From Bacteroidota bacterium (GTDB taxonomy: Bacteria; Bacteroidota; Bacteroidia; Bacteroidales; FEN-979): a DNA stretch of 64,000 bases. Shown piece after piece: positions 18,244 through 48,643 of this stretch. How positions within the stretch are numbered: position 1 is the first letter of the stretch; each line of letters begins with the position of its first letter. The notes under the pieces are model-generated. The model was not told the origin of the DNA, ran no database searches, and was given only the letters and a program-made list of their open reading frames with translations. Both the position numbers and the translations under genes were made by a program. Location of the stretch: positions 93,088 to 157,087 of the forward strand of contig JBAXIO010000005.1 of assembly GCA_037138335.1 (NCBI GenBank), in the 5' to 3' direction.

Positions 18244-18252
18244 ACTCTGCCA

Positions 18253-19314: not shown

Positions 19315-19333
19315 CCATATGAAGTCCTGAACT

Positions 19334-20269: not shown

Positions 20270-20271
20270 AA

Positions 20272-23335: not shown

Positions 23336-24664
23336 CTATCCGATATCAAGCGTATCGATCACATCAGTGAGTTCCTTGGGCCTGTAGGGCTTAGCAAGGT
23401 ATTCATCCATTCCTGCCGAAATACATTTTTCCCGGTCGGTCATTATTACATGGGCCGTTACCGCTATTATTTTTATCGGAGGCCTGGCATTTACAGGGTC
23501 TTTCTCCCTTTGCTCTTTCTCGAAATTCCTGATTATATGCGTGGATTCCAGGCCGTCCATAATAGGCATGGCAATATCCATAATGATCAGATCATAATGC
23601 TTATCCCGGAATTTCTCAAAAGCGATTTTACCGTTTTCTGCTATCTCAACCTGGTGCCCCGACCGGGTAAGTGTTGTAGCGGCAAATTTCTGATTTAAAA
23701 TATTGTCCTCAACCAGCAATATCATTAACGGCCTGCTTTTCTTTACTTTATTTTGTTTCTGGCTGATGTTATTCCTGAAAGCTTCAATATCACCGGCTTC
23801 GTATAATAAGGTAAACCAGAATGTAGAACCAATGTCTTTTTTACTTGTCACGCCGATTTTACCCCTCATCAGGTCGATGAGGTTCTTTGAAATAGATAAG
23901 CCTAATCCGGTACCTTCAAATTGCTTTATCAACGGGCTGTCCAATTGGGCATATTCCTGGAACAAATCGGCTTGTTCATCCTCAGGGATACCCACCCCTG
24001 TGTCGGTAACTTCAAATTTCAACAGGACAAAACCCGGGGGAAGAGAATTCATAGAGTATACTTCTTCAGGAAGGTACTCGGTAAGTCTCAGGTCATCAAG
24101 CCTGTTAACATCAAGGATCTCAACAGATGCTACAACCGAACCTTCAAGGGTGAATTTTAATGCGTTGTTTGTAAGGTTGACAAGTATCTGATGCAGGCGT
24201 ACGGCATCCCCGATAATACATTCCGGCACCGCCGATTGGATCCTGTAAGAAAGTTCAATCCCCTTGCCCTTTGCCCTTAGCGACAACATCTTGATCACCT
24301 GATGGATTTCCTCGTGAAGCAGGAAAGGTTTGTTTTCAAGCTTAAGCTGCCCTGCTTTTATCTTGGAAAAATCAAGAATGTCATTGATGATAGCCAGCAG
24401 GTTATGGCTTGAGATGTTAATGACCTCAAGGAGTTCACGCTGCTCGGGACTCAGGTTTGTCTGGTCGAGAATATTGTAAATCCCAATGATGCTGTTCATA
24501 GGTGTCCTGATCTCATGGCTCATATTTGCCAGGAAGATGGTCTTGGTACGATCGGCATCGTAGGCTCTGATCTTTGCTTTTTCAAGGTCTTTGAGGGCCT
24601 GGTTATAATTAACTTCAAGTTCCTTTAAACGTAATTCGATTTCAGTTGCTTTTAATTCATCCAT
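23336..24664 (-). CDS. Soluble hybrid sensor histidine kinase/response regulator with no recognisable sensor domain
   Basis: About 45 aa of coiled coil, then H-box FLANMSHEIRTPMNSIIG, N-box LTNNALKFT, G1 DTGVGI, G2 GTGLGLSISK. Receiver: LLVEDN...DLIIMDIAMPIMDG...AVTAH...YLAKP. Confidence 0.85.
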   Translation of the reverse strand: MDELKATEIELRLKELEVNYNQALKDLEKAKIRAYDADRTKTIFLANMSHEIRTPMNSIIGIYNILDQTNLSPEQRELLEVINISSHNLLAIINDILDFSKIKAGQLKLENKPFLLHEEIHQVIKMLSLRAKGKGIELSYRIQSAVPECIIGDAVRLHQILVNLTNNALKFTLEGSVVASVEILDVNRLDDLRLTEYLPEEVYSMNSLPPGFVLLKFEVTDTGVGIPEDEQADLFQEYAQLDSPLIKQFEGTGLGLSISKNLIDLMRGKIGVTSKKDIGSTFWFTLLYEAGDIEAFRNNISQKQNKVKKSRPLMILLVEDNILNQKFAATTLTRSGHQVEIAENGKIAFEKFRDKHYDLIIMDIAMPIMDGLESTHIIRNFEKEQREKDPVNARPPIKIIAVTAHVIMTDREKCISAGMDEYLAKPYRPKELTDVIDTLDIG

Positions 24665-24668
24665 AAAA

Positions 24669-26084
24669 TCAAAACTTATTCAGTTGGTTCTTCATTATTG
24701 AATATAACTGCTGCTGGTTAATTGGTTTTGAAATATAATCATCAAAACCGGCTTCGAGCAGTTTTTCGCGGTCCCCGGCCATTGCATAAGCAGTTTGGGC
24801 GATAAAGGGAATGGAATTATATTGCTTCCAGTTCTTACGTATCTCATGCATCAGTTTTACACCATCCCAGGGAGGAGGAAGGTTAATATCAAACAGCATA
24901 ATATCAAAGAACCTGTTCTCGGCAGCCTTTTCTTTAATTATTTTCAGGGTTTCGTCTCCATTAACGGCTGCAATGACTGTGCCAAGCGACTTGGTCATCT
25001 CGGTCAGCACCAGCTTGTTCATCATGTCATCTTCAACAATAAAGATGTCGAGGTTGTGAAGACCCCTGGCCTTCTTTTTTTGTTCCTGTGATGAGGGTGC
25101 CGATTCCTGGGAGTACGCATCCCGGGTCCGTAAAAAAAGTGTTACTGTAGTTCCAACACCCTTCTCTGACTGGATTTCCAATATCCCCTGCATCATCTCA
25201 AGAAGACTTTTAGCAAGCGGCAAACCAAGGCCGGTACCCTTACCCTCTTTTGAGAACCCTGTTGTCTCGCTTTTAAACGGGGCAAGAAGCTCGGGTATGA
25301 ATGCAGGATCAATTCCCGTTCCGGTATCTTTAATGCGGATGGAAACCATGTCCCTTTCTTTATGAAAATCGGTTGAGATATTGATGAAGCCCTGTTCCGT
25401 GAATTTTATGGAGTTATCAAGTACGATACTGAGAGCTTTGGACAGTCCTGCTTCGTCGGCAAGTCCTTCGGGGATATCTCCCGGTTTAAAATTCAGCTTA
25501 AGCTTTTTCTTGTTAGACTGAAAAAGATGCACCTGGATGCTATTTGCGACGATCCCGTTTACCGAGCAGGGGATGGGTTTAAGAGTAAAATCGTTTGACT
25601 CGACCCTGCTGATATCAATAATGTTATTCAGCAAGTGAAGCAGCCTGTCACCGCTTTCCAGAACGGCGTGGGCATAATCAAACAATTCCTTGTTCTCAAT
25701 AACCGAAAGCTCGGCTTCAAGCAGGCTTGCAAAACCTATAATGTTGTTCAGAGGGGTCCTGATCTCTGAACTCACGTTAGAAAGAAAAGAGTTGAGAAGG
25801 AAATTTGCATCTTCAGCTTTTTTTAAAGCTTTCTTCAAAATCATATCCCTGTCCCTTTTCTCGTCATACTCTTCTTTAATAACGAGTGTTCTCTCGATAA
25901 CCTGGTTGTCGATCCCGGCTTCATATTCCCTTAACTTTGCAAGGGCATTCTGAAGCTCCCTGTCCTTACTTTTAAATTTATTTTCTAAATCTGCTGATTT
26001 ATTCCTGGCCTTGATGTTCTGGAAAACTGCAATTACAATCAGCAAGCCCGATAAAATGGCAAGAAAAATGCTTAATGAGTTCAT
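24669..26084 (-). CDS. Membrane-anchored hybrid kinase-like protein/response regulator whose H-box has Ser in place of the phospho-acceptor His
   Basis: One N-terminal TM helix, coiled coil, H-box FLSNVSSEIRTPLNNIIG (Ser106, codon at 25767-25769, where HEIRTP is expected). Intact N-box LDNSIKFT, G1 DTGTGI, G2 GTGLGLPLAK. Receiver: FIVEDD...IMLFDINLP...AQTA...YISKP. Confidence 0.8.
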   Translation of the reverse strand: MNSLSIFLAILSGLLIVIAVFQNIKARNKSADLENKFKSKDRELQNALAKLREYEAGIDNQVIERTLVIKEEYDEKRDRDMILKKALKKAEDANFLLNSFLSNVSSEIRTPLNNIIGFASLLEAELSVIENKELFDYAHAVLESGDRLLHLLNNIIDISRVESNDFTLKPIPCSVNGIVANSIQVHLFQSNKKKLKLNFKPGDIPEGLADEAGLSKALSIVLDNSIKFTEQGFINISTDFHKERDMVSIRIKDTGTGIDPAFIPELLAPFKSETTGFSKEGKGTGLGLPLAKSLLEMMQGILEIQSEKGVGTTVTLFLRTRDAYSQESAPSSQEQKKKARGLHNLDIFIVEDDMMNKLVLTEMTKSLGTVIAAVNGDETLKIIKEKAAENRFFDIMLFDINLPPPWDGVKLMHEIRKNWKQYNSIPFIAQTAYAMAGDREKLLEAGFDDYISKPINQQQLYSIMKNQLNKF

Positions 26085-26090
26085 CTTTAG

Positions 26091-26897
26091 TTATTTATAA
26101 GCAATATATAAATCTTCATCCGGATTTATGGCATACCTGTCAAGCTCTATAGGCCATTTGTCACGGTATGGGTTATGCCGCTTAACAACAAACCCTCCTT
26201 TTTCAAGCCTGCTTTGATAATCCTGCCCGTAAATCCTTACATGATCATATTGTCCGAAAATCTTCTCCCTCTGTTCAGGTGTTTTTACCGAAGGATCTTC
26301 AAATGATTTCTCGAGAATCTTCGAAATCGGAACCTGCAATATAGCCCAGCCCCCGGGTTTTAACACGCGGTGCAGTTCGCCTATGGCTTTCATGTCGTCT
26401 TCGATATGTTCAAGAACATGATTGCAAATAATGATATCGAAAACCTCATCTTCGAATTTAAGGCTCGTAATATCCAGGGTATTTGTAGTCCTTTCGTAAT
26501 AAAAACCTTCATGGTATTTCATTCCCGCCTCATAAGAGATATTTGGCAAACGGTTAAGCATTGCCCTGATGCAGCCTTCGGGGGCAACATGGAAAACCTT
26601 TAAGGGTGCCGAAAGAATGTTTGTTTTTTGGCTGAGGAAAAGATATACCAGGCGGTCGCGGTCAAGGGAATGGCAACGCGGGCAAACGTCATTCAGACGA
26701 TATCCGGCTCCAACAATCTGTTTTTCGTAGATTACCGGCAGGTCAATACCCCCGGGGCGGAATTTCCGGAAAGAATATCCGCAATAGGGGCAGTAATATA
26801 CATCACCGCGCAGAATGATCGCAGAAGCCTTCTGATAGGCTCCTCTGAGCTTTTTTGCAAGCCAGAAAGGTATTAGTTTCTTCAGGGCTGGTTTCAT
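26091..26897 (-). CDS. Class I SAM-dependent methyltransferase with an N-terminal Cys4 zinc-ribbon-like segment
   Basis: CPYCGYSF...CPRCHSLDRDR, then the methyltransferase fold FDIIICNHVLEHIEDD...LKPGGWAILQVP. Confidence 0.75.
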   Translation of the reverse strand: MKPALKKLIPFWLAKKLRGAYQKASAIILRGDVYYCPYCGYSFRKFRPGGIDLPVIYEKQIVGAGYRLNDVCPRCHSLDRDRLVYLFLSQKTNILSAPLKVFHVAPEGCIRAMLNRLPNISYEAGMKYHEGFYYERTTNTLDITSLKFEDEVFDIIICNHVLEHIEDDMKAIGELHRVLKPGGWAILQVPISKILEKSFEDPSVKTPEQREKIFGQYDHVRIYGQDYQSRLEKGGFVVKRHNPYRDKWPIELDRYAINPDEDLYIAYK

Positions 26898-26916
26898 CTT
26901 TTTGTCAGTTGCATAA

Positions 26917-28539
26917 TTAAAACGTACCGGCGTAAATTTTCCTGTTCACCGATCGTGCGCCAAAGCGAAAAATGCAAATATAACAGGCATCCTCAAGTCT
27001 TCCAATAAATTTCTCAATTTCGACAGGGCCCGGGCCTGATACCGAATTGCATAGGGTTGAAATATGTTCCCCCTTCAGGGAATATAAATCTGCCGAAAGA
27101 GACTCCCTCTCTTCGAGTCTTAAACTTATCTTCATCACCCCCGATACAAGGCAGCAACGGATGATCTCCAAACCAGGCGCCTCGGCGTTTTCATTTATAA
27201 AAAGAAGCGATGAATCATGGCATTCAAATGCGCCGATGTCATATTTCCACGGCCACGGCCTGAACCTGCCTATTATATCAGTGTTCAATGGCAATCCGGA
27301 AACTGCCGAACCTTTATTAACAGCAGGGGAGGAAGGCTGGAGGTCATAATTATCTGCGGAAGGATTAATGAACTTTACATCGCTGACTGCGGCAACCTGC
27401 AAATTGTCCTGTTGGACAAGCGTTGTTCCGGGAGCAAGTTTAATATATGAACCCGGCACATCAGCGATAATATTGTCCGATGCCACACTGTTTAACGCCG
27501 AGGTACTCCTGAAATCGATACCGTTCGTCCTGGGCGAAACAATGGTATTGAAAACGATCTGATAGCCCCTGCCTGCAGCCGGGGTTTGCGTTCCAATATA
27601 GATGCCGTGTTTCTGTCCTGAACCGCTGAAATTCTTCCCGGGATTCACAATAAGATTATTATAAATATAGTTTCCACCCTGTCCCAGTTCATCAATGCCA
27701 TCGCCCTTTCCGTCCTTTATAAAGTTTGAGAAACAATTGCATGACGATCCGCCTCCAAGCAAAAAGCCGCTCATTTGCCCGCTTGCTTCGCTTTGGCTGT
27801 CAAGGTGAATAAAGTTATTATTTACAAAGCAGGCTGAATCTGCGCAGGAAACCTGTATCCCGTCCCATCCGGTATTTTCAACCCGGTTATTATAAATTCT
27901 CAGTCCGCGAATAAGGTGTGGGTATACCAGGGTATCTTTTCCATTGCAATGTATTGTATAGCCGCTGAAGTATGAATGCCCTATATACATGCCTTCATCA
28001 GCAATATTATGAAGATAATTATCATGGATGCTGATGTTCCTCATGATAAAATTACCCCTTGTTGACTTGAAACTGCAATCGGGATCAGTCTTTGCGACAA
28101 TCCCGGTCCAGGAAGCCGCAGATATTTCCACCCCTGCAACTTCAATGCATGAGCTTAATCCCTGTATTGCCACCCCTGCATTGACAACGCTGATAACAAA
28201 TCCATAAGAGCCCGGATCAGCTGTTCCGATGCACCTGATCCAGGAGCAGGTATCGAATTTTATGCCGTAGTTTGAGTTTGTTAAAATCACAATCCCGCCA
28301 AGATTCTGAACAAGGATAGGTTTTGCAGAGGTGCCATGAAGGCTGCGCAGTAATATATATTGACGGGTTGATGCAGAAATATAGATCGTATCACCGGGTT
28401 TCACGGCTGATGCATTGCCCCGCCCGTCTATTACCGGTTTGTCGGGACCGAAGATGAACTGCGTGGCAAACGCCAGGTCAGGAGATAAAACCGTGAGGAT
28501 GACGGCAAGTAAAAAAAGAATATGTTGCTTCTGTTTCAT
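26917..28539 (-). CDS. Secreted right-handed parallel beta-helix repeat protein (possible polysaccharide lyase/hydrolase/epimerase), possibly with a T9SS CTD
   Basis: Signal peptide. Periodic N/G/I-rich repeats (IHDNYLHNI, IYNNRVENTGWDGIQV, VNNNFIH, IYNNLIVNPG). C-terminal about 90 aa (LSADLYSLKGEHISTL...) resembles a type A sorting domain. Confidence 0.55.
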   Translation of the reverse strand: MKQKQHILFLLAVILTVLSPDLAFATQFIFGPDKPVIDGRGNASAVKPGDTIYISASTRQYILLRSLHGTSAKPILVQNLGGIVILTNSNYGIKFDTCSWIRCIGTADPGSYGFVISVVNAGVAIQGLSSCIEVAGVEISAASWTGIVAKTDPDCSFKSTRGNFIMRNISIHDNYLHNIADEGMYIGHSYFSGYTIHCNGKDTLVYPHLIRGLRIYNNRVENTGWDGIQVSCADSACFVNNNFIHLDSQSEASGQMSGFLLGGGSSCNCFSNFIKDGKGDGIDELGQGGNYIYNNLIVNPGKNFSGSGQKHGIYIGTQTPAAGRGYQIVFNTIVSPRTNGIDFRSTSALNSVASDNIIADVPGSYIKLAPGTTLVQQDNLQVAAVSDVKFINPSADNYDLQPSSPAVNKGSAVSGLPLNTDIIGRFRPWPWKYDIGAFECHDSSLLFINENAEAPGLEIIRCCLVSGVMKISLRLEERESLSADLYSLKGEHISTLCNSVSGPGPVEIEKFIGRLEDACYICIFRFGARSVNRKIYAGTF

Positions 28540-28558
28540 AATCAGGATTAAATTTCAT

Positions 28559-29737
28559 TCAGCCCCGCTTGGCCCTTTCCCAATTAACCGATTGCTGTTT
28601 CTTTACATACCTTGCGAATCCGAGGTATACGGCAAGATTCATAATGAAAAAATAGTAAGGGATGTATAGCAATTTGATTTTTATCTTCCGCTCTTCAAGG
28701 AACCATCCGAGAATTGCAAGGAAGTAAAAAAGGAGCTGGCCCCAGAAAAGCCAGACATATATGCTGCTGAAATTGAAAAGGCCAGCGGTAAATGTGATGA
28801 TACCCGAGCACACCAGCATAATTAGAAGACCCAGTGGTGCAAGGGTCCATCTAAGAACCCGGTGGGATATATACTGGAAAGAGAGAAGGCCAAACCTGAA
28901 AGGGTTCAGCAATTCCTTCAGCCGTATTACCGATTGAATTCCACCGGCTGAGATCCGGATCTTCCGTTTAAGTTCCTCCCTGACACTTGCAGAAGGGTTT
29001 TCAATAGCATAGGCCTCCGGGTCATATTGTATTGTGTAACCCTGTTCTGCAATCCGCAGTGAAATGATAAAATCATCCAGTAATGTATCCGGCTCTACAG
29101 GCCTGAATAGTTCTGTCCTGAGGGCGAATAACTCGCCTGCAGCCCCAACGACCGAATACAGTTCGGCATCCCATTTTTTCAGGGTGGATTCATACTTCCA
29201 GTAGATTCCCTCCGTAGCTGCTGCAGATTCTTTGTTGAAAACCCTTTTCTCGCCTGAAACACAGCCAACACCCGGCCTTTTGAATAAATTGACTATCCTC
29301 CTTACCGACTCCCGACCGAGCATTGTATTCCCGTCGGAAAAGATCACGATAGGTGTTTTTACAAACTGCATGCCGCGGTTCATTGCGGCAATTTTCCCGG
29401 CTCTCTGGGGTTGGTGATAAACCTCGACGCCCTCATACTTTCTGAGTATGTCGGGAGTGCCGTCATCGGAACCATCGGTGATCCATACATGCCTGACCTT
29501 TTCCCTTGGGTATTCGAGGGAAAAGGAATTCCTGATTTTTTCATCCACAAAGTCTTTTTCATTGTAAGCGGCAACAAACAGCGTTACTTCCGGCTCATAG
29601 CTTTCATCCGTAACAGTTATTTTCTTTGCTGACAGACGTTTTATCCTGATCAGAAAAAACAGAAGGATCCCATATCCCAGATAGGCATAAAAGACGATGA
29701 AAAGAAAAGCCCATACAGTAATTTTCAGTACCATCAT
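28559..29737 (-). CDS. Membrane-integrated family 2 glycosyltransferase
   Basis: N-terminal TM helix, VTLFVAAYNEKD, ITDGSDDGT, IFSDGNT, LLDDFIISL, then about four C-terminal TM helices. Confidence 0.8.
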   Translation of the reverse strand: MMVLKITVWAFLFIVFYAYLGYGILLFFLIRIKRLSAKKITVTDESYEPEVTLFVAAYNEKDFVDEKIRNSFSLEYPREKVRHVWITDGSDDGTPDILRKYEGVEVYHQPQRAGKIAAMNRGMQFVKTPIVIFSDGNTMLGRESVRRIVNLFKRPGVGCVSGEKRVFNKESAAATEGIYWKYESTLKKWDAELYSVVGAAGELFALRTELFRPVEPDTLLDDFIISLRIAEQGYTIQYDPEAYAIENPSASVREELKRKIRISAGGIQSVIRLKELLNPFRFGLLSFQYISHRVLRWTLAPLGLLIMLVCSGIITFTAGLFNFSSIYVWLFWGQLLFYFLAILGWFLEERKIKIKLLYIPYYFFIMNLAVYLGFARYVKKQQSVNWERAKRG

Positions 29738-29759
29738 AAAACAGATATTGAGGTCCTAA

Positions 29760-30419
29760 TTAAATCTTTCGTTCCCATTGTTTTGTTTCAGGATTGTATG
29801 CTTTCAACACCTTTGCAGGATTACCGGCGACAATTGAAAAGGGAGGAACATCTTTGGTTACAATGCTGCCGGCTGCAATCACAGAATGTTTCCCTATGGT
29901 AACCCCGGCAACGATCACTGCATTGGCTCCGATCCAAACCTCATCCTCAACCTTGATCATCGAAGTTGTCTGCTTCTGATGGCTGATTGGTTTTGTCAGG
30001 TCTTCGTAGGAATGATTAAGCCCTGAAAGAACAATGTTCTGGGCAAGCATAATGTCGTTACCAATGGTTACAGGTCCGATCACAGTACAGCTCAGGCCAA
30101 TCCTTGATCGTTCACCAATATAAACAGGGCCTGCGCCGTTATTGACAGTCGCAAAATCCTCGATTGTGGAGTCTTTCCCAAGCACAAAATCATTCCATGG
30201 GAATACATCAATCCTGGTTCTCCTGCGTATGCACGAATGACGGCCCCGTTTATGCTTGAACGGATTCAGGAATAATTTCACCCATAACCTGGGCCTTGCC
30301 TGGTTCTTTGGCGTCAGCAGGTTAATAACGAAAAGTTTCAGTTTCGGATTGGATTTTATCCTGCCCATCAGGGAACCTCCGGCGGAAGCTCCCGGTGCTG
30401 TGCTGCTTTCCTTTTCCAT
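29760..30419 (-). CDS. Hexapeptide-repeat (LbH) sugar O-acetyltransferase
   Basis: Imperfect hexapeptide repeats IGERSRIGLSCTVIGPVTIGNDIMLAQNIVLSG and VWIGANAVIVAGVTIGKHSVIAAGSIVTKDVP. Confidence 0.75.
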   Translation of the reverse strand: MEKESSTAPGASAGGSLMGRIKSNPKLKLFVINLLTPKNQARPRLWVKLFLNPFKHKRGRHSCIRRRTRIDVFPWNDFVLGKDSTIEDFATVNNGAGPVYIGERSRIGLSCTVIGPVTIGNDIMLAQNIVLSGLNHSYEDLTKPISHQKQTTSMIKVEDEVWIGANAVIVAGVTIGKHSVIAAGSIVTKDVPPFSIVAGNPAKVLKAYNPETKQWERKI

Positions 30420-31610
30420 TTATCCTATTGCTTTATAAATTTCATTAACATTTGCTTCCCAGGTGTGGCCCCTTGCAAATTTCTCACGTGCAAGGATCTT
30501 TTCCCTGGAATTTTCTTCTAATGCGAGCCCGATTAAATGTACATAATCCTCTTTCGAGTTTGCCAGGTAGACATGCTCCTTAAACACGCTCATCGCTTCA
30601 GTCTGGGTAGCAACAGCAGGTTTCCCCATGGCAAGATATTCATCGATCTTACGCGGATAATTCCCAACAGTGACTTCGTTCAGTATTTGCGGATTGATTG
30701 CAACATCAAAACAGTTCAGGTAGGGGGGGAGTGAATCCGGCGGTTTGCTCCCAAGGAAGTATACATTGGGGAGTGTATGAAGATCGGAGTTTTTAAATGC
30801 ATCATCCTCCGGGCCTATCAGAACTACGCTCCATCCCGGTCTTTGCCTTGCAATAAAGGAAATGATCCCTATATCGAGCCTCAGCTTGTACAGTACACCA
30901 ATGTAACCTATTACCGGCCTTCTGATATCGGCGATCTCGGCCGGGGCCGGACCTGTGACCAGGTTTGAATCAAACGCGCTGACATCACAACCCTGGCCGA
31001 CATAAACCGAATTAGGGTTGAATTTTTTACAGTAGTTTGCAAGGTAGACCGAGTTCGCGACAGCAAGGTCGGCTTTTTTAATTAGGGCAGCCTCTATTCT
31101 CACTCCCTGCTTCTTCCACCAGTCAACGGCTATCATATTATCCCTTGAGTAATAAATGAATTTAGCCGGTTTCAGAAGGTCTTTGAGGTAAAAACTCCTG
31201 TACATGTCACTGTCACAGAAAATAATAATATTCGTGAACCCGAGAACATTCAAGGCTTTGCTGATCTCTTTGGCAAACCTCCGGTTGTTGACCTTATTCA
31301 GAAAATCAAACACCAGGTTGCTCCCAATCTGGCTGATGGACTCCAGTATGGTCCTGGGATATAAGGTCCATAAGTTATCCTTTATTTTAACCAGCGAATC
31401 CTCTTTCCCCTTTATTACCGACAGCCTTTTAATGATATTGGGATCCTTGCGGTGGCGCATGACCGACATACGGTCTGCGGGGTAATTCACATACAATACT
31501 CTGTGCTTCCGTGAAAATTCATAAGCAAGGTTCACCGGGTTGGAACCTGCAGCATAGTTAATCCCCTGCAGGCTCGTGATTACAATATCCATTGTTCCGC
31601 TGTCATCCAT
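30420..31610 (-). CDS. GT-B fold glycosyltransferase (family 1/4-like, TuaH-like); tandem paralog of 31623..32822
   Basis: C-terminal Rossmann pattern NVYFLGSKP...FDVAINPQILNEVTVGNYPRKIDEYLAMGKPAVAT. Long blocks are shared with the neighbouring gene. Confidence 0.65.
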   Translation of the reverse strand: MDDSGTMDIVITSLQGINYAAGSNPVNLAYEFSRKHRVLYVNYPADRMSVMRHRKDPNIIKRLSVIKGKEDSLVKIKDNLWTLYPRTILESISQIGSNLVFDFLNKVNNRRFAKEISKALNVLGFTNIIIFCDSDMYRSFYLKDLLKPAKFIYYSRDNMIAVDWWKKQGVRIEAALIKKADLAVANSVYLANYCKKFNPNSVYVGQGCDVSAFDSNLVTGPAPAEIADIRRPVIGYIGVLYKLRLDIGIISFIARQRPGWSVVLIGPEDDAFKNSDLHTLPNVYFLGSKPPDSLPPYLNCFDVAINPQILNEVTVGNYPRKIDEYLAMGKPAVATQTEAMSVFKEHVYLANSKEDYVHLIGLALEENSREKILAREKFARGHTWEANVNEIYKAIG

Positions 31611-31622
31611 TGGCGTTGGTTG

Positions 31623-32822
31623 TTATTTCTTAAGAAGCTTTATCTGCTCGTAGATCTTATTGACAAAATTTGCCCAGGAATGGCTCCTGGCAACCCTGAT
31701 CCGGTCCTTCCTCTTTTCAGGGCTGTCCTCTGCCAGGGCTTTCCCTATCTCTGTGATGTAATCCTCCTTGGTTGGTGCCAGGTATGAATCTTTGGAGAAA
31801 TAGAAATTCATAAACCATGTCTTGGTAGCAACAACAGGTACTCCCATAGCAAGATATTCATCCAGTTTCAGAGGATAATTGATATTGGTAATTTCATTTA
31901 TGATCTGTGGATTTATAGCAACATCAAACCCCTTGACATAGCCTGGTAATTCAGTCCCGGGTTTTCCCCCGAGAAAATAAACATTTTTAAGCTGGTGAAG
32001 TTTGCTGTCCCTGAAGGCCTGGTCTTCGGGCCCAACAAGCACCATGCTCCAGTCGGGGCGCTGTTCTGCAACATACTCAAGGAGCTCAATATCGAGCCGG
32101 ATACTTGTGAGATTCCCGGTATACCCTATCCGCGGATGGGGTATTGTGCTGAGTTCATCAGGAACCTTCAGCGTTCCATCATCATCCCGGTACAGATCAA
32201 TATCACAACCCTGTCCGATAAAATGTGAATTTGGATTGAATTTGGTTGCATAGTCGGAGAAGTAAGGCGAATTGGTTACTACGAGGTCAGATTTTTTAAT
32301 CAGCAGTGGTTCCAGCCTCACACCATGCCTGGCGTGATAGGCTACTTTCGTGACATGGTCCCTGAGAAAATACAGCTGAACTGCAGGTTTTAGAAGTTCT
32401 TTAAAATTAAAACCATTGATCATCGATGTATCATTAAGAACGATATAATCCTTAAAATTCAACCTGTCGATGGCGGTTTTAACCTGTCGGGCAAAACGTC
32501 TGTCGTTCATTTTATTCAATGAATCGAAAAGCCCGGGATTGGAAATCCAGTTTACAGACTCAAGGACTGTCTTCGGATAAAGCACCCAGAGGTTCTTATT
32601 GATCTGCACCAGGTCTTCATCCTTCCCGCTGAATACCTTGCGGTATTTTATGCTCTCCGGGGCATCGCGTCTGAAAAGCTGAAAACTCCTTTGCAGGGGA
32701 GTATCAAGAAAGATAACCCTGTTTGTCTTGCATAGTTCCATCGTAATATATTTGAGAACGGTGGCTACGAAAGTATCCCATGGCTGAATACTGTGCACGA
32801 TAAAATCTCTTCCTGTTGGCAT
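31623..32822 (-). CDS. GT-B fold glycosyltransferase (family 1/4-like, TuaH-like); tandem paralog of 30420..31610
   Basis: NVYFLGGKP...FDVAINPQIINEITNINYPLKLDEYLAMGVPVVAT and FNPNSHFIGQGCD, matching FNPNSVYVGQGCD in the paralog. Confidence 0.65.
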   Translation of the reverse strand: MPTGRDFIVHSIQPWDTFVATVLKYITMELCKTNRVIFLDTPLQRSFQLFRRDAPESIKYRKVFSGKDEDLVQINKNLWVLYPKTVLESVNWISNPGLFDSLNKMNDRRFARQVKTAIDRLNFKDYIVLNDTSMINGFNFKELLKPAVQLYFLRDHVTKVAYHARHGVRLEPLLIKKSDLVVTNSPYFSDYATKFNPNSHFIGQGCDIDLYRDDDGTLKVPDELSTIPHPRIGYTGNLTSIRLDIELLEYVAEQRPDWSMVLVGPEDQAFRDSKLHQLKNVYFLGGKPGTELPGYVKGFDVAINPQIINEITNINYPLKLDEYLAMGVPVVATKTWFMNFYFSKDSYLAPTKEDYITEIGKALAEDSPEKRKDRIRVARSHSWANFVNKIYEQIKLLKK

Positions 32823-32832
32823 ATAGATAGTA

Positions 32833-33972
32833 TTATTTGTTTGAAATTATTTCATTATAAACCTGTATGACACCAAGAGTCATATTTTTCCAGGTGAATT
32901 TTTTAGCCTGTTCCAGGCCTCCAGCAATCAGGCCTGATCGTAAAGCCTTATCAGACAGTAATCTGAACATGTTTTCGGTAATCTGTTCCGGTTTAAAGGG
33001 GTCAATGAACAAAGCAGCATTCCCAGCCACTTCCGGCATAGATGAAGTATTGGAAGTGATCACGGGCGTGCCGCATGCCATTGCTTCAAGCATTGGGATA
33101 CCAAAGCTTTCCCTTAGAGACGGGTATAAAAAGACAGTGCTGAGGCTGTATATCCCCGGAAGTTCAGTATTCGGGACATACCCGGTAAGGATTATATGTT
33201 CGTGCAATGAAGGGTCGCCCACATCCTCTATGAGTTTTGCCAGTGCTTCCCTGTCGTAATCAAGCATTACGAGCGGTATTTTTTCAACAGATGCCTTAAG
33301 GAACAGCGACAATGCCTTCAGTACCCCCCTGGTGTTCTTCTTCGGATCAGTATTCCCGAAGAAAAAGAAAAACCTGTCGGGAAGCTTGTATTTTTTCTTT
33401 ACAGCATTCAGGCTTGCCGGGTCGGTAACCGGCTTGAAATGTTCGCTTACACCATTGTATATTGCTTGAACTTTTTCAGGGCCGATTTTAAAGAAATCAG
33501 CAATCCTTTGTTTTTCAAATTCCGAAACCGTGATCAGTTTCTTACATTTCCTGACAACCCCGGGAACTACCATCCTGCGGTAAAGGTTCCCGAATTTCTG
33601 ATAATTTGTAAATCCCTGGCTCAGCAGGCTGAGCTTCTCCATGTAGATGATATCATGCAATGTGACTACAAGCGGAATTGCAGTTGAAAGGGGGGCCGTA
33701 TTGCTGGTGCAATGCAGGATGTCGCAGTTGGCTTTCTTTGCAGCCGATGGAAGGACAAACTGTTCCCAAACAGGGTATGGAGCATCCCTCAGTTTGACAA
33801 TTTTGAAGTTCCCTCCCGAATGCAGGCATTCATCTTCATCCTGTTTGACAAATACAAAGTATTCGTTTGTTGTATCAATGAGCTGGAGGTTCCTGATAAG
33901 TTCGAGGGCAACCATATCCATCCCATGTTTCTTTTTTCTGAATAACCGCTGTCCTTCAATACCGATTCGCAT
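32833..33972 (-). CDS. Family 4 (GT-B) glycosyltransferase
   Basis: EX7E motif region YPSLRESFGIPMLEAMACGTPVITSNTSSMPEVAG. Confidence 0.85.
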   Translation of the reverse strand: MRIGIEGQRLFRKKKHGMDMVALELIRNLQLIDTTNEYFVFVKQDEDECLHSGGNFKIVKLRDAPYPVWEQFVLPSAAKKANCDILHCTSNTAPLSTAIPLVVTLHDIIYMEKLSLLSQGFTNYQKFGNLYRRMVVPGVVRKCKKLITVSEFEKQRIADFFKIGPEKVQAIYNGVSEHFKPVTDPASLNAVKKKYKLPDRFFFFFGNTDPKKNTRGVLKALSLFLKASVEKIPLVMLDYDREALAKLIEDVGDPSLHEHIILTGYVPNTELPGIYSLSTVFLYPSLRESFGIPMLEAMACGTPVITSNTSSMPEVAGNAALFIDPFKPEQITENMFRLLSDKALRSGLIAGGLEQAKKFTWKNMTLGVIQVYNEIISNK

Positions 33973-33984
33973 GATATTATGTTT

Positions 33985-35169: not shown

Positions 35170-35199
35170 TGCCCTGTTTTCTGTATAATTACTTTGAGA

Positions 35200-36387
35200 T
35201 TATTTCTCCACGCCATGAACGGTATGGTCCCACTTCTTTTTCGCTTGATAGATCCTCGTAAGTGAGAGTAACATCATGAAAAATCCTTTTGGTAAAAGAA
35301 AAATGGCCTTAAAGGTGGTGAAATTGTAAAACCTTCTCGGGGTTGAAAACATAAGGGTCAGAATGCATATGACAGTAAGAGCCAGCCAGGCCCATGTATA
35401 CAGTATGGGATTCAGCAGCCACGACATCGCGGTTAACAGGATCAGGAATCCAAGAAGGAATATCCTTGGGGGCAGTAATTGCTGGATTACTTTATCAAGG
35501 AAGTCAATATTCCCCTTGGTAAACAGTTCTTTTATCCCCGGCAGGAAATAGAGCTTTGCAAATATAAACTGTGTTGCAAGCCAGCGGGCTCTCTGCACCA
35601 TAAATACATTTGACTTTTGTACTTTCTCATCATAAACAATGGCATCATTTACATAAGCGATCTTGATCTGATCTTTGATCATTCTCATCTCAAGTTCTTT
35701 TTCTTCTCCAAGAATGAAATCCATATTTGTTATATAATCCTTGAACAAGGCATAGTCAAAAGCCATTCCCGAACCAATCAGGGCAGAAGAAAGTCCTAAT
35801 ACCCAATGACCTTTTCTGAATATCTGGTTGTTGATCTCTTCACTCACTGTATCCAGCACTGCAAATGCCGTATTCTGGTTTTTAGCTGTCCTGTGCACCT
35901 GGATGGCCTTATACCCGAGGTTCATGGCATTGTTCATTTTCCCGAGACAATCCCGTTCCATTATGTTATCGGCATCCAGAATCAATGCAATATCATAATT
36001 CCCTTCCAGCCTTTTTACGGCTTCCTTAAGCGCTTTTGCCTTGGAACTGTTCTCAAAAACCACTTCCATCACCTGGATCGGGAGTTTGCGCAGTTCTGCA
36101 AGGGTCCCGGGGGAGAAGCTGTCGGCAATAATTATAATATCATAGCGTTCCCTGGGGTAATCCTGTTCAAGGGCCTGCCTGGCAACTTCAATGATAACCG
36201 AATCTTCTTTGTAGCCCGGGATAAGCACGGCAAAGCGATTGAGCTTTTTGTTTTCGGGAACAGTTTGTCTGATAGGGAAAAGACCGGCTATAGAGAAGAT
36301 TAAAAAATAAATAGTGGTAAGGAATAAATATGTAAAAAGAACCACTTGTAAACCGATAAAAACCCACTTTAATATTTCAAGTATCAT
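35200..36387 (-). CDS. Membrane-embedded family 2 glycosyltransferase with synthase-like architecture; tandem paralog of 33985..35169
   Basis: N-terminal TM helix, LIPGYKED, ILDADNIME, QRARW motif (VQRARWLATQ), then several C-terminal TM helices. Confidence 0.75.
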   Translation of the reverse strand: MILEILKWVFIGLQVVLFTYLFLTTIYFLIFSIAGLFPIRQTVPENKKLNRFAVLIPGYKEDSVIIEVARQALEQDYPRERYDIIIIADSFSPGTLAELRKLPIQVMEVVFENSSKAKALKEAVKRLEGNYDIALILDADNIMERDCLGKMNNAMNLGYKAIQVHRTAKNQNTAFAVLDTVSEEINNQIFRKGHWVLGLSSALIGSGMAFDYALFKDYITNMDFILGEEKELEMRMIKDQIKIAYVNDAIVYDEKVQKSNVFMVQRARWLATQFIFAKLYFLPGIKELFTKGNIDFLDKVIQQLLPPRIFLLGFLILLTAMSWLLNPILYTWAWLALTVICILTLMFSTPRRFYNFTTFKAIFLLPKGFFMMLLSLTRIYQAKKKWDHTVHGVEK

Positions 36388-36458
36388 ATTAAAAGTTTAA
36401 TGATTAGCCGAATACTAATGCAAATATAATTGAAACACGAAGCGAATCCAAAAGATTA

Positions 36459-37382: not shown

Positions 37383-37383
37383 T

Positions 37384-38313: not shown

Positions 38314-38346
38314 TAAGCTTAAGTAACATTGTTAACCTTCCGAGTT

Positions 38347-38475
38347 TCAGTAGAGAGATTTTTTATCTTCCTCCTCACGTTCCTGTTGCCTTCTATGCTG
38401 CAACATTGCTACAATAAACCCAAGCGGGGTAAAAAGAATAAATCCTATCATCATATGAACGACTACGCCTGTCAT
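38347..38475 (-). CDS. Candidate 42-aa single-pass membrane peptide (not in the ORF track)
   Basis: Hand translation: MTGVVVHMMIGFILFTPLGFIVAMLQHRRQQEREEEDKKSLY. ATG lies 7 nt after the Wzy-like stop; hydrophobic helix followed by a charged tail; fills an otherwise unexplained 169-nt gap in a tightly packed operon. Confidence 0.35.
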   Translation of the reverse strand: MTGVVVHMMIGFILFTPLGFIVAMLQHRRQQEREEEDKKSLY

Positions 38476-38482
38476 CTGGATT

Positions 38483-39958
38483 TTAACTAAGGGGTTCTGT
38501 TATTACTTCATTTGGTTTTACGGGAATGAGTTTATCCATTGCAGGAGCCATAAACACATAGGCCATGCTGATATAAACGACCAGGCCGGTTGGGAACTGT
38601 CCCAGAACGGCATTGCCGTAGCTGGCAACCAGGATGCCGAAAACACCGCACAAAAGTGCGGCGATCTTCACCTCCAGATCTTTATTTTTTATCTGAAACA
38701 TGCTTATATATAATCCTTTGCCGGTAAAATAGCCCAGGATCAGAAGATGCAGGTAAAGGCCGATTATTCCCGCTTCCGCCCATATAAGAACAAACCAGCT
38801 GTCGGTAGCAACGCTTGAGAGGAAAGTCTCCCCTGTATATGTTATTGCCCTGCTTCCCGCGTGACCGATACCCCCTCCAAAAGGCCTGGTTTTAAGGTAA
38901 GCTTCAAAAATAGCCTGGTTCTTGAGCCTAACCTGAAATGATGCATCATCATCAGGAGTAAAAGCCGATCTCATCCGATATACCTGGTAACTGCTGTCGC
39001 CTATTGTCGTGTACCTGAAAAAGGAATAAATGAAGATGAGAAATATTGCACCAATTATAATTACTTTAACATTCTTCCTGATAATTATATATAAAGCGCC
39101 ACCTGCAAAAGGCACGAAAATTGCACCCCTGGTTCCGGAACTGGACATGCCATAATACCCGGCAATAAAAACAACGGCCCAGAACAGCCTGCTTCTTAAA
39201 CGTTTTTCATAAAAGAACATGATCATTGCAACAACCCCGATTTGCCCCTGGGCGGCACCAAACTGGCCGGCATCAGAGAAAAATGAGAAAGCCCGTAAAT
39301 TCCCCCACAGGATATGGGTCACGGCACCAACTTCATCAAGCCATTTTTGCTCCCACGGGTCAACCCCTATATTCAGCTGTATCCATGCTTTGGCTGATGC
39401 GATGATAGATATTATGGCCCATATTTTTAAAAAGCGGTCGAGGTGTTTCGGTGTATTATAAAGAAGTTGCACAAGGGGGATCACAAGTAACATGTATAAG
39501 CCTATACCACGCATGGAAGCAAACCAGGCTGTTTTATTCACTGCCTCAGGGTTGAACATTTCAAGTACAATATATCCGAACCATACCACGGCAAGGTAGG
39601 TCAGGTCATTTTGAACAGGTTTCAGGTCAAGCTTCTTGTCATAAAAATGGAAGAACATTGCGATATAAGTAGATATCAGCGTGATGTCCATCAGGTACCC
39701 CAATTTAACTGGGATATATCGGGAAATCCCGATGATAAAGAAATTAATGATAAAAGCGAAAGTAATACCGATCTCAGGTTTTAGAATAAGCCGGTAGAAT
39801 GAATAGAAAAGAATGGGGATCGCAATGACAATGGCAGCGGTCATCATGCCCCCCAGGGCCATTGCATAGCCCAAGACAATAGCAGCAATTAACATGATCC
39901 CAACCAGAAATGGATTTCTGAGTAGTTCAGCTCCGGTAGGTATTTGAAAAAGGTTCAT
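38483..39958 (-). CDS. O-antigen ligase/polymerase (Wzy-like) family membrane protein
   Basis: 491 aa, at least 10 predicted TM helices, central SSSGTRGAIFVPFAGG segment resembling the Wzy_C motif, positioned next to Wzx. Confidence 0.6.
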   Translation of the reverse strand: MNLFQIPTGAELLRNPFLVGIMLIAAIVLGYAMALGGMMTAAIVIAIPILFYSFYRLILKPEIGITFAFIINFFIIGISRYIPVKLGYLMDITLISTYIAMFFHFYDKKLDLKPVQNDLTYLAVVWFGYIVLEMFNPEAVNKTAWFASMRGIGLYMLLVIPLVQLLYNTPKHLDRFLKIWAIISIIASAKAWIQLNIGVDPWEQKWLDEVGAVTHILWGNLRAFSFFSDAGQFGAAQGQIGVVAMIMFFYEKRLRSRLFWAVVFIAGYYGMSSSGTRGAIFVPFAGGALYIIIRKNVKVIIIGAIFLIFIYSFFRYTTIGDSSYQVYRMRSAFTPDDDASFQVRLKNQAIFEAYLKTRPFGGGIGHAGSRAITYTGETFLSSVATDSWFVLIWAEAGIIGLYLHLLILGYFTGKGLYISMFQIKNKDLEVKIAALLCGVFGILVASYGNAVLGQFPTGLVVYISMAYVFMAPAMDKLIPVKPNEVITEPLS

Positions 39959-39963
39959 TGTTA

Positions 39964-41364
39964 CTATTGAAATAAGGGTTCTTTGTTTTTAAGGCGCTTG
40001 TTTAATTCTTTATAAAAAGCAAAGCCTTTCGAAAAAATAAGGGTGAATGAAATGTCTATTTCTTTCTTCAGAAAATGATATCCTATAAACAGTCCGATTA
40101 CAGAAAACACTATCGACGCTATTGCAACGAATAAAAGAATCGTTATCGGGGGCATGGAAGGAAAAAGGTAATGCAGTCCGAAAATTGCGAAGACATCCCC
40201 GAGTATGTTGGCGATAGTCATTACAGCCACTTTCTGGAAATTCTTATCCGGCCTGTTCAGGCTGTCAAGTGCAACTCCTGTAAAGCGGTCTAGGGGCATG
40301 AGCATCCCATAGAGGATAAACACCATAAGGACATAAGTAATATGCGGAGAAGTCGTAAGATATTTTGCCCCTCCGAGAATAAGAATGAAATATTTATTCA
40401 GAACAAGGCTGATTGCCGCAATGAGGATGAAAATATAGACTATCGGGCCGGTATAGGCATAATAAATCCTCTTAAAGCCTTCCTTGTTATTTTCCATGCT
40501 CATTTTTGAGAGTTTGGGGAAGGCTGTTGTTGCAAAGCTAAGCAGGGGGATCTCAATGAATTCAATGTATTTCAATGGTATGGCATATATTGCGACACTG
40601 GCAGGACCCATGAATGCGCTGAAAGATATAATAAAACTGTCGGCACCTTTGAGAAGGCTGCTCCCAATGCGTGTTGCCATGGAATACCTCCCGTATTTCA
40701 GGATATCAACGACTTTTTCTTTACTTATATGCCGGATGTACTGAAGGCCGGTCCATTTGCGGATAACACAAAACAAGGAAGTAGCCAGGTTCGTCGCAAT
40801 ATATATGAGCACTACCGTTTTTACATCAATTTTAATGAAGAGGTAGGCAAAGAAGATGATCACCAGAAATGAGCAAAGGTTGAAAAACCTTATCCACAGT
40901 ATCTTTCCAAAATCAATGTCGGCCTGGAAGATTGACCAGGCGTAATTCCATGGCAGGGTGACAAGCCCGAGCAGGGGGTACCAGGTAAAGAACAAAGAAT
41001 AGCCGCTTTCCTGCAAGGCATGAGGGATTAGCAGCGCAACGGTCCATAAAATCACCGTAATGCCGGCAAGAATAAGCAAACCTACCACCCAGGCAGAACC
41101 AAGATAATATTTTCTTTCCTCCGTATTACTTCCTGAAAGGTACCTGACAAGGGCTTCTTTTGTTACTCCGAACCTCAGCATGTCGATTAAGGAGGCAGGT
41201 GTAGTAAACAGGATCCAAATACCAAAATCATGGATGGATAACATCCTGAGAAGAATCATAAAAGAAAACAGGCCGGCCAGGGCGGTCGACAGGTTCCCGG
41301 CGAATGAAAGGAAATTCGCGTCTTTTACTATCTTAAACGATGTTTGTTTTAAGAATGCCCACAT
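39964..41364 (-). CDS. Polysaccharide flippase (Wzx/MOP superfamily)
   Basis: 466 aa, about 12-14 TM helices, no soluble domain, located between the PCP and Wzy-like genes. Assignment rests on topology and context. Confidence 0.65.
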   Translation of the reverse strand: MWAFLKQTSFKIVKDANFLSFAGNLSTALAGLFSFMILLRMLSIHDFGIWILFTTPASLIDMLRFGVTKEALVRYLSGSNTEERKYYLGSAWVVGLLILAGITVILWTVALLIPHALQESGYSLFFTWYPLLGLVTLPWNYAWSIFQADIDFGKILWIRFFNLCSFLVIIFFAYLFIKIDVKTVVLIYIATNLATSLFCVIRKWTGLQYIRHISKEKVVDILKYGRYSMATRIGSSLLKGADSFIISFSAFMGPASVAIYAIPLKYIEFIEIPLLSFATTAFPKLSKMSMENNKEGFKRIYYAYTGPIVYIFILIAAISLVLNKYFILILGGAKYLTTSPHITYVLMVFILYGMLMPLDRFTGVALDSLNRPDKNFQKVAVMTIANILGDVFAIFGLHYLFPSMPPITILLFVAIASIVFSVIGLFIGYHFLKKEIDISFTLIFSKGFAFYKELNKRLKNKEPLFQ

Positions 41365-41387
41365 GATGAATCAAATTATGGCCATCA

Positions 41388-44866: not shown

Positions 44867-46099
44867 TTACATATTCTCCTTTTGAAATAAAGCGCCGAAT
44901 GTTCTGAATATGATAACCAGGTCACTCCAGAATGTGTTATGCTCGGCATAATAATTGTCAAGTGCGAACCTCTCTTCTTCCGACATTGGTCCGGTTCTCC
45001 CTCTTTTTTCTACCTGCCAGAGACCGGTCAAACCAGCTGCCGACCGGAACCTGCGGCTCCATTTCTTTTTTGTCAGGGCTTCGGCTTCATTTAAAGGTAA
45101 AGGCCGGTTCCCGACGATCGACATATCCCCTTTAAGGACATTGATAAGTTGCGGCAATTCATCGATACTCGTCATCCTGATAAATTTGCCGACCTTGGTT
45201 ATCCTCGGGTCGTCTTTAATTTTAAGGAAAGCCTTCCTGGCGCTCCTGCGTTTGTTTGCTATTCTTTCACAAACCTGTTCTCCATCATAATATACCAGGG
45301 GGGAACAATACTGCCCCTCGGGTAATTTGGCGCATTCGGTGCATTTGACCTCCACGGTTTCACTGATATACTGGTTGAGATGCTCAACTTCCTTTAATCG
45401 TTTGTCGGCATCAGGATACATCGAACGGAACTTATAGAAATCAAAAATTTTGTAATTGGCACCAACCCTTTTTGAAAAATAATATACTTTCCCTCTGGAT
45501 TCAATCCGTATCGCAAACATGGTAATGATCATCAGAGGGGAAAGGACAAGAAGTGAAGTCCCCGCCACAAGGAGATCGAACGTCCGTTTAATGAACGGGG
45601 TTTTATAAGCGTTAAAGCTGACGCTTGTATCGACCACGATGGTTTTATTCTCAAATTCCGATTTGAATTTCTTGAGAAGGTTGATCCTGTTATGTATATT
45701 CTCGGGAACAATGTCCTGATGATAAAAATCATCTATGCCCAGCATGTAGGCATTTTTCTTTGCACTGTAATCTTTAAAAAAAGAGATGACAATAAAGGGT
45801 GTTTTCTGGTAAAGCTTGTTAAGCTTTAAACGCCTGAAGAACGAGAATGCATTGATCCCCGGAAGGAGCAGTTCACAAACAATTGCGTCAATAGGCTGTT
45901 TTTCCTCGTATTTTATATCGAACCTTGTGTCCTTGTCCAGGTCGAAAATTTTAAATTGATTGTCGGTCAGCCAATAGATTGCCGATAAGGGATCCCCCAT
46001 GACGGTAACATTGAAGTACCTGGAATTACGGAATTGCTCAGCCATTGACTGATCTTTACCGATATACAGGATATTTAATGCCGTGTTTTCTTTCTCCAT
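44867..46099 (-). CDS. Undecaprenyl-phosphate sugar phosphotransferase (bacterial sugar transferase family) fused to an N-terminal degenerate receiver domain
   Basis: C-terminal PGT core KRTFDLLVAG...RIESRGKVYYFSKRVG...KFRSM...DPRITKVGKFIRMTSIDELPQLINVLKGDMSIVGNRPLP. N-terminal about 135 aa shows a CheY-fold pattern, with IVCELLLPG (Glu76 at the Asp position) and DDFYHQD (no Lys). Confidence 0.85.
   Translation of the reverse strand: MEKENTALNILYIGKDQSMAEQFRNSRYFNVTVMGDPLSAIYWLTDNQFKIFDLDKDTRFDIKYEEKQPIDAIVCELLLPGINAFSFFRRLKLNKLYQKTPFIVISFFKDYSAKKNAYMLGIDDFYHQDIVPENIHNRINLLKKFKSEFENKTIVVDTSVSFNAYKTPFIKRTFDLLVAGTSLLVLSPLMIITMFAIRIESRGKVYYFSKRVGANYKIFDFYKFRSMYPDADKRLKEVEHLNQYISETVEVKCTECAKLPEGQYCSPLVYYDGEQVCERIANKRRSARKAFLKIKDDPRITKVGKFIRMTSIDELPQLINVLKGDMSIVGNRPLPLNEAEALTKKKWSRRFRSAAGLTGLWQVEKRGRTGPMSEEERFALDNYYAEHNTFWSDLVIIFRTFGALFQKENM
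45695..46087 (-). other. Receiver-like (pseudo-receiver) domain of the priming transferase
   Basis: beta1 ILYIGKDQ (DD replaced by KD), beta3 DAIVCELLLPGINAF (D replaced by E), beta4 FIVISF, beta5 GIDDFYHQD (K absent). Confidence 0.6.
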
Positions 46100-46104
46100 C
46101 AGGA

Positions 46105-46506
46105 TTATTGGCTGCTTTTGATGCCCGAAAAGGCTACAGATGTTTCAATACGTCTTTTGATCCTTACAATCAGCTCCCTTGGATTAAATGGTTTCACAAC
46201 ATAATCATCGGCCCCCATTTCAAAACATTTGATTTTATCGGAACTTTCTTCCTTCCCGGATAACATGATCAATGGTATCTCATCAAAAAAACCACTTTCC
46301 CGTATGCGCTTGATAAATTCAAATCCATTCATCACGGGCATTTCCACGTCGCAGATGATTACATCCGGAAGGTTCCCCGACTGGATGTAATAAAGTGCAT
46401 CCATCCCGTTGCTGAGGGTTGTCACTTCAAACTCTTTATTGAAAGTATTTTCTATGATGAACCGGATACTCTTTTCATCGTCTATAGCGAGTATCTTTCT
46501 TTTCAT
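46105..46506 (-). CDS. Single-domain CheY-like response regulator
   Basis: All receiver signatures are intact: ILAIDDE, DVIICDVEMPVMNG, LIMLSG, GADDYVVKPF. 133 aa with no output domain. Confidence 0.9.
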   Translation of the reverse strand: MKRKILAIDDEKSIRFIIENTFNKEFEVTTLSNGMDALYYIQSGNLPDVIICDVEMPVMNGFEFIKRIRESGFFDEIPLIMLSGKEESSDKIKCFEMGADDYVVKPFNPRELIVRIKRRIETSVAFSGIKSSQ

Positions 46507-46526
46507 TTAGAATCAGTTTTGGTAAG

Positions 46527-46534
46527 CAAATATA
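46527..46534 (-). promoter_or_regulatory. Candidate -7 promoter box TATATTTG (TAnnTTTG) for the polysaccharide operon
   Basis: Exact consensus match on the minus strand, 20 nt upstream of the response-regulator ATG, with a TTTG element 13 nt further upstream. Confidence 0.35.
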
Positions 46535-46619
46535 TTCGAATTTACCCCAAACTGCCAAAAAGGTTATTAACAATAAAACGAAAGTTATTAAGAAGAGGAC
46601 TGGCGGAGGTTTAACGAAA

Positions 46620-48641: not shown

Positions 48642-48643
48642 AC

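Follow-up and report, generated by a model that had tools for sequence, protein, structure and literature searches.

How bacteria throttle the first, lipid-carrier-consuming step of polysaccharide synthesis is largely unknown. In Myxococcus xanthus the phosphorylated single-domain regulator EpsW acts post-translationally on the priming phosphoglycosyl transferase (PGT) EpsZ, which it binds directly and activates (Schwabe et al. 2025, mBio, PMC12802240). It is the first published case of such control by a single-domain regulator, dates only from 2025 and concerns only the large monotopic PGTs (monoPGTs) of myxobacteria; according to the same study, small monoPGTs fused to receivers exist and may work differently. 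Here we describe a locus in a 64,000-nucleotide stretch of contig JBAXIO010000005.1 (the window), which is probably a Wzx/Wzy-type exopolysaccharide (EPS) cluster of an uncultured Bacteroidales bacterium with its own two-component module. The module consists of a stand-alone response regulator (RR), encoded directly upstream of a PGT with an N-terminal pseudo-receiver, and of two hybrid histidine kinases, HK-A and HK-B, at the far end of the cluster (Table 1); the PGT is the probable target of the RR. An earlier note on this DNA had proposed that signaling controls polysaccharide initiation post-translationally and stated that no characterized example was known. The proposal is plausible in view of the RR-PGT pairing and the lack of a DNA-binding output, but with EpsW/EpsZ it is not unprecedented, and the statement on examples does not stand. 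Our literature searches retrieved no relevant characterized example of such control from Bacteroidota.

The RR matched the Pfam family Response_reg with 100.6 bits (cut-off 30.2) over residues 5-116 of 133, and no further domain was found with Pfam. The residues required for phosphorylation are all present (D9, D10, D53, S83 and K105), and the protein is closest to receivers of the OmpR/PhoB type. Like EpsW, it is a phosphorylatable single-domain regulator without an output domain that is encoded together with an EPS pathway, here a probable Wzx/Wzy one. On the other hand, EpsW receives its phosphate from DifE, a kinase of the CheA type, whereas the present cluster encodes hybrid kinases of the HisKA type.

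The PGT gene follows the RR gene after 5 nucleotides (nt). Its catalytic domain matched Bac_transf (PF02397) with 194 bits, and the D313-E314 dyad is invariant in 70 homologues. A Foldseek comparison of this domain with the PglC structures 8e37 and 8g1n yielded TM-scores of 0.69-0.70. The enzyme has a single hydrophobic segment at residues 173-201, which AlphaFold2 (AF2) modeled as a re-entrant helix of residues 169-201. There is no bundle of four transmembrane helices and no match to PF13727, and the NCBIfam models of WbaP, WcaJ and EpsZ remained far under their cut-offs, with 148.9 bits for EpsZ, whose cut-off is 800. The enzyme thus lies outside the large monoPGTs, and its catalytic dyad and lone re-entrant helix place it among the small or bifunctional monotopic PGTs of the PglC type. 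EpsZ, in contrast, is a large monoPGT with a four-helix transmembrane bundle and a DUF. In both enzymes an accessory alpha/beta domain precedes the catalytic domain.

As a separate feature, the catalytic domain contains an insert of about 55 amino acids (aa) relative to the Pfam model with four cysteine residues (C253, C256, C265 and C277; window positions 45269-45343). The cysteines are invariant in 70 homologues, which suggests that the insert may bind zinc. The Cytophagales homologues of L056 and L057 have a shorter insert or none.

The N-terminal domain of the PGT gave a partial Response_reg match over residues 62-139 with 29.8 bits, just below the cut-off of 30.2. An AF2 model built with 70 homologues showed (beta-alpha)5 topology for residues 8-148 at a pLDDT of about 90. 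In Foldseek the domain aligned with the receivers of PmrA, PhoP, DrrD and BfmR at TM-scores of about 0.8, and the rmsd to the receivers of PmrA, PhoP and DrrD was 2.1-2.8 Å. The receiver fold is degenerate in its phosphorylation residues. G14 and K15, followed by D16, take the place of the acidic pair, E76 that of the acceptor aspartate and Q128 that of the lysine, while S106 is present. Position 76 is Glu in 59, Asp in six and Asn in three of 70 homologues. A further peculiarity is an insert of about 25 aa between alpha2 and beta3. G121, D123 and D124 in beta5 and R138, L142 and K146 in alpha5 are invariant or nearly so. An exhaustive search with the domain returned only three clusters at E<1e-30, with generic receivers below, and the pseudo-receiver family is narrow. 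The RR and the pseudo-receiver align pairwise with E=5e-12 at 22% identity, a value which does not support a recent duplication of the RR.

Fusions of monoPGTs to receiver domains have been catalogued before (O'Toole, Imperiali & Allen 2021 PNAS, as cited in PMC12802240 and PMC10942596), and as in those fusions the receiver-type domain is N-terminal to a small monoPGT core. As the citing papers present it, this catalogue is confined to architectures and does not extend to a lost phosphorylation site, an obligate adjacent RR or cluster-encoded kinases. A regulatory domain in the same place is known from WbaP of S. enterica, whose DUF (PF13727) senses uridine nucleotides and dimerizes via a beta-hairpin (Dodge et al. 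2024, eLife, PMC10942596). As in WbaP, the PGT core described here is directly preceded by an alpha/beta domain without catalytic function; unlike the WbaP DUF, this accessory domain is receiver-derived.

A scan of one genome per species yielded 60 related loci. The pairing of RR and PGT is conserved: in 52 loci the RR gene immediately precedes the PGT gene, at a distance of -40 to +36 nt in 51 cases and of 430 nt in L058. The eight exceptions were mostly due to contig ends or overlaps in the calling of open reading frames (ORFs). The locus occurs in metagenome-assembled genomes (MAGs) of freshwater and sediment Bacteroidales and Prolixibacteraceae, in many cultured Parabacteroides species, in Tannerellaceae and in Cytophagales. 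Synteny in the MAG group is complete from uvrB through RR, PGT, OEP/TolC-like protein, co-polymerase-like protein, Wzx and Wzy as far as the GT2 genes, and the closest relative, a Bacteroidales MAG, shows 96-99% amino-acid identity. Elsewhere the RR-PGT adjacency persists while the remaining cluster is rearranged. No other protein of the block is conserved as well as the RR in the uvrB-syntenic MAG loci, where its identity is 76-99%, compared with 54-96% for the PGT.

Two loci of the survey, L015 and L029, are labeled as Alphaproteobacteria and Syntrophorhabdaceae MAGs. Their PGTs are 65-90% identical and synteny is complete; they are probably mis-binned Bacteroidales contigs.

Both terminal kinases showed HisKA, HATPase_c and receiver domains above the Pfam cut-offs. 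HK-A has one N-terminal transmembrane segment, intact N, G1 and G2 boxes for ATP binding and an intact receiver (D399). Yet, its H-box (NVSSEIRTP) carries Ser106 (codon at window positions 25767-25769) at the site of the acceptor histidine, which in HK-B is present as His50; the receiver of HK-B is intact as well (D363). Among 117 HK-A homologues the residue at this site is His in 61, Ser in 49, Gln in four and Ala in three. The non-His residues fall into separate identity bands and so seem to reflect more than one loss of the histidine, whereas ATP-binding boxes and receiver are retained, which suggests a repeated conversion of HK-A orthologues to putative pseudo-kinases.

The far end of the cluster was traced via the HK-A homologues. 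A kinase gene closes the cluster in all six neighborhoods that were followed to the cluster end, and these represent five lineages. In four lineages, at 48-58% identity, the last genes are those for a beta-helix protein, a methyltransferase, HK-A and HK-B, and one of these loci shares its contig with a PGT locus. In a Parabacteroides cluster the last gene encodes a single REC-HisKA-HATPase kinase of 370 aa with canonical Asp and His, and a Bacteroides-type cluster ends with a PAS-HK-REC protein.

The HMM searches bore out the domain calls of the earlier note throughout. The first gene encodes a canonical single-domain CheY-like regulator; for the second, a PGT fused to a degenerate receiver, Pfam, AF2 and Foldseek agree; and the last two genes encode hybrid kinases, one of which lacks the acceptor histidine. 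Likewise, none of the four receivers is joined to an HTH or other output domain, and Pfam and NCBIfam scans detected no DNA-binding domain among the 20 cluster proteins.

If the kinases signaled through their own receivers, the RR would serve mainly as a phosphate sink or buffer and the pseudo-receiver merely as a structural or dimerization module. A precedent is the hybrid pair EspA/EspC of Myxococcus, in which EspA phosphorylates the receivers of both proteins and the turnover of MrpC, not transcription, is the output (PMC4320627). HK-A and HK-B likewise are two HK-REC proteins and may act as a pair, albeit in a different pathway. The lack of an acceptor histidine in one kinase, the failure to find a histidine phosphotransfer (Hpt) domain (see below) and the Glu at the acceptor site of the pseudo-receiver, which suits a phosphorylation-independent domain, are in line with a sink. 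Yet, a sink needs neither RR identities as high as those of the MAG loci nor a fixed place beside the PGT across orders, and Parabacteroides keeps the RR despite its single kinase of another architecture. We consider a mere sink function quite improbable.

The absence of a transcriptional output, the fixed position of the RR gene beside the PGT gene and the PGT being the sole enzyme with a receiver-derived domain rather point to an action of the phosphorylated RR (RR~P) on the PGT. Thus we favor, if by a modest degree of confidence, the view that the output of the module is the priming enzyme and not transcription. By this mechanism HK-B would autophosphorylate at His50, probably together with its membrane-anchored paralogue HK-A, the H-box of which would be unable to take phosphate while ATP-binding domain and receiver are kept. 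The phosphate would pass to Asp53 of the RR directly from HK-B, via an HK-A/HK-B heteromer or via an Hpt protein encoded elsewhere. RR~P would then bind to the pseudo-receiver PGT and alter its activity, and this would gate the first committed, undecaprenyl-phosphate-consuming step. The phosphotransfer and binding steps are modeled on EpsW/EpsZ. By this analogy the system may work in a similar way even though its PGT is not a member of the EpsZ or large monoPGT families.

Several points weigh against an action of RR~P on the PGT. Hybrid kinases usually require an Hpt domain to reach a separate regulator. Pfam gave no Hpt hit in the cluster proteins or in related neighborhoods, and a crude test for an HxxKG-type motif was negative for all ORFs of the window. 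The term phosphorelay used in the earlier note is therefore too loose. Small monoPGTs are reported to be monomers (PMC12802240), so the dimerization mechanism of EpsZ may not carry over. AF2 placed the two domains of the PGT relative to each other at low confidence only (pTM 0.48). Furthermore, the Response_reg score of the N-terminal domain fades from 39.5 bits in L030, where the Asp is retained, via 29.8 bits here to 15.7 bits in Parabacteroides, and the domain is undetectable in Cytophagales. In the Cytophagaceae MAG locus L038 (9606-10804) the RR gene is found 6 nt upstream of a gene for a PGT of 269 aa without any N-terminal domain. Because the domain is barely detectable, undetectable or absent in some lineages, the pseudo-receiver cannot be a universal docking site.

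A domain too variable for a fixed docking site is also what would be expected if RR~P targeted another component, i.e. the co-polymerase-like protein, Wzy, the OEP-like protein or an outside factor such as a transcription regulator or a sigma/anti-sigma partner, and if the adjacency of RR and PGT reflected co-expression only. Single-domain regulators have diverse partners, and in Bacteroidales the whole block of RR, PGT, OEP-like and co-polymerase-like genes is conserved so that any member could be the partner. However, the Cytophagales loci L038, L056 and L057 keep the RR-PGT pair without adjoining OEP and co-polymerase genes, there is a precedent for a PGT as the target (PMC12802240), and no other enzyme of the cluster is fused to a receiver-derived domain. 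On balance we hold another target to be unlikely. The pair of L038, which is followed by GT2 and acyltransferase genes, is a minimal form of the RR-PGT pair.

With the PGT as the favored target, the question of the contact surface arises. Dimerization without phosphorylation is known from atypical receivers that carry Glu in place of the acceptor Asp, e.g. ChxR of Chlamydia, and typical and atypical regulators can form heterodimers, e.g. BldM-WhiI of Streptomyces. These proteins likewise have the receiver fold with an acceptor residue other than Asp; they bind DNA, while the pseudo-receiver described here is fused to a membrane enzyme. With Glu at its acceptor site and G121, D123, D124 and R138 kept, the pseudo-receiver is a candidate docking or dimerization surface. 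In a more detailed reading RR~P would heterodimerize with it via the alpha4-beta5-alpha5 face typical of OmpR/PhoB-type receivers and so switch the PGT on or off. HK-A and HK-B would form a heteromeric sensor without an extracytoplasmic domain that reports the state of the assembly machinery or the supply of lipid carrier. In this full form the reading is tentative and rather doubtful.

Judged from the sequences, the combination of a small monoPGT fused to a pseudo-receiver with an obligate adjacent canonical RR and with cluster-encoded kinases, including one without the acceptor histidine, appears to be new, and it is spread across Bacteroidota. The locus suggests that the logic of EpsW/EpsZ may be used in this phylum with another enzyme class, that of the small monoPGT core, with a receiver-derived accessory domain and with kinases encoded in the cluster. 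If true, receiver-only regulators and pseudo-receivers, a widespread class, would thereby gain a function. On the heterodimer reading, REC-REC contacts would be an output mode for the direct control of an enzyme, and this mode would reach gut Parabacteroides. The occurrence in cultured gut Parabacteroides makes the proposal genetically testable.

The cluster is preceded by a promoter-like element, P1. Its TATATTTG box at 46534-46527 of the minus strand, which the earlier note had listed as a candidate promoter, fits the Bacteroidetes -7 consensus TAnnTTTG, with TTTG located 21 nt further upstream. The -7 box is present in all of about 30 syntenic MAG loci, about 27 nt before the RR start. The bipartite motif occurs six times in the window, where 2.9 occurrences are expected, and two of the six, P1 and P2, are located in gaps of the cluster on the right strand. 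The -7 box of P2 was found in 16 of 16 MAG-lineage loci that reach this gap and is absent in Parabacteroides. Sigma-70 promoter scans are not applicable to Bacteroidota. Because P2 is conserved inside the cluster, the cluster may consist of two transcription units. Thus, of the single operon that had been claimed, the same-strand run with short gaps stands, while the conserved P2 points to two units; in that case the kinases may be transcribed from P2 and by read-through. A TAnnTTTG box 85 nt ahead of the methyltransferase gene, within the coding sequence of the beta-helix protein, was considered as a kinase promoter, but it is missing from six related loci and was dismissed as a chance match. 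No conserved separate promoter motif was found ahead of the kinase genes, which start 4-6 nt from their upstream neighbors. Terminator-like sites in the cluster were all within ORFs and at chance frequency, and none was seen in an intergenic position.

The conserved P2 between RR and kinases would also suit a separate transcription unit in which the kinases are not partners of the RR and serve another pathway, e.g. a neighboring cargo module of the type IX secretion system (T9SS). Convergent T9SS genes are found beside the kinases in four neighborhoods of three related lineages as well (L061-L064, L066). Yet, the short distance of the kinase genes from the upstream EPS genes on the same strand argues against such a separation, and a kinase also ends the clusters of Parabacteroides and L065, which have no T9SS neighbors. 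Kinases unrelated to the RR are thus very unlikely in our view, and the kinases remain part of the module that we propose to act on the PGT.

The cluster occupies positions 46506 to 23336 of the minus strand and comprises 19 ORFs of at least 124 aa and one of 42 aa, the micro-protein of Table 1. The peptide of the latter is kept in at least 24 related loci with the consensus M.GV.VH..IG..LF.P.GF, so it is probably a real gene and a count of 20 genes is reasonable. This confirms the earlier count of 20 same-strand ORFs with abutting or overlapping junctions and gaps of 71 nt or less. The largest gap is 71 nt (36388-36458) if the 42-aa ORF is counted, and 169 nt if it is dropped. The junctions of PGT/OEP and of the third GT4 gene with the hexapeptide acyltransferase gene measure 0 nt, and OEP and co-polymerase genes overlap by 1 nt. 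Upstream of the cluster, at a distance of 113 nt, uvrB (46620-48647) is encoded on the same strand.

Of the Wzx/Wzy pathway components, PGT and Wzy_C scored above the cut-offs, whereas the flippase and Wzz/GNVR matches were weak and below them. No cluster protein matched the Wza/OPX exporter family (Poly_export); instead, an OEP-like protein follows the PGT. The co-polymerase-like protein has a C-terminal P-loop-like domain, for which neither a significant match to tyrosine kinases of the BY type (BY-kinases) nor a Tyr-rich tail was found. A role as a BY-kinase that phosphorylates the PGT by the CapB/CapM route was rejected since even the best PDB hit of the C-terminal domain, MinD, was not significant (E=0.27). 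An Rfam scan of the whole window detected no RNA family.

Table 1. Features of the EPS locus from the RR end to the kinase end, with gene order and domains according to Pfam and NCBIfam; positions refer to the window.
Feature	Position	Strand	Basis or remark
P1, Bacteroidetes-type promoter-like element TTTG-N21-TATATTTG	46527..46559	-	28 nt upstream of RR start
Stand-alone RR, 133 aa, receiver only	46105..46506	-	Response_reg
PGT, whole gene	44867-46099	-	pseudo-receiver + Bac_transf
PGT, pseudo-receiver domain, residues 8-148	45656..46078	-	partial Response_reg, AF2, Foldseek
PGT, catalytic domain, PglC-like small monoPGT	44885..45589	-	Bac_transf, residues 171-405
OEP/TolC-like protein, 262 aa, N-terminal hydrophobic segment	44078..44866	-	Pfam, synteny
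Co-polymerase-like protein, 896 aa	41388..44078	-	weak Wzz + GNVR, LysM, two transmembrane segments
Multi-pass membrane protein, probable Wzx-type flippase	39964..41364	-	weak family matches only
Wzy-type polymerase	38483..39958	-	Wzy_C
Micro-protein, 42 aa, single transmembrane segment, between Wzy and first GT2 gene	38347..38475	-	peptide conservation
Two GT2 glycosyltransferases	37384-38313, 36459-37382	-	Pfam
P2, second promoter-like element TTTG-N20-TATATTTG	36421..36452	-	in 71-nt gap before first GT2_3 gene
Two GT2_3, three GT4, hexapeptide acyltransferase, GT2/GT21-like transferase	28559..36387	-	Pfam
Right-handed beta-helix protein	26917..28539	-	Pfam; orthologues with T9SS C-terminal sorting domain
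SAM-dependent methyltransferase	26091..26897	-	Pfam
HK-A, membrane-anchored hybrid kinase	24669..26084	-	HisKA + HATPase_c + Response_reg
HK-B, soluble hybrid kinase	23336..24664	-	HisKA + HATPase_c + Response_reg

The T9SS module that adjoins the kinase end of the cluster is encoded convergently on the plus strand (16915-23334). It comprises genes for an FKBP, a PKD/CHU_C protein, PorP/SprF and a cargo protein of 1022 aa with a Por_Secre_tail, and the stop codon of the cargo gene is 1 nt apart from that of HK-B.

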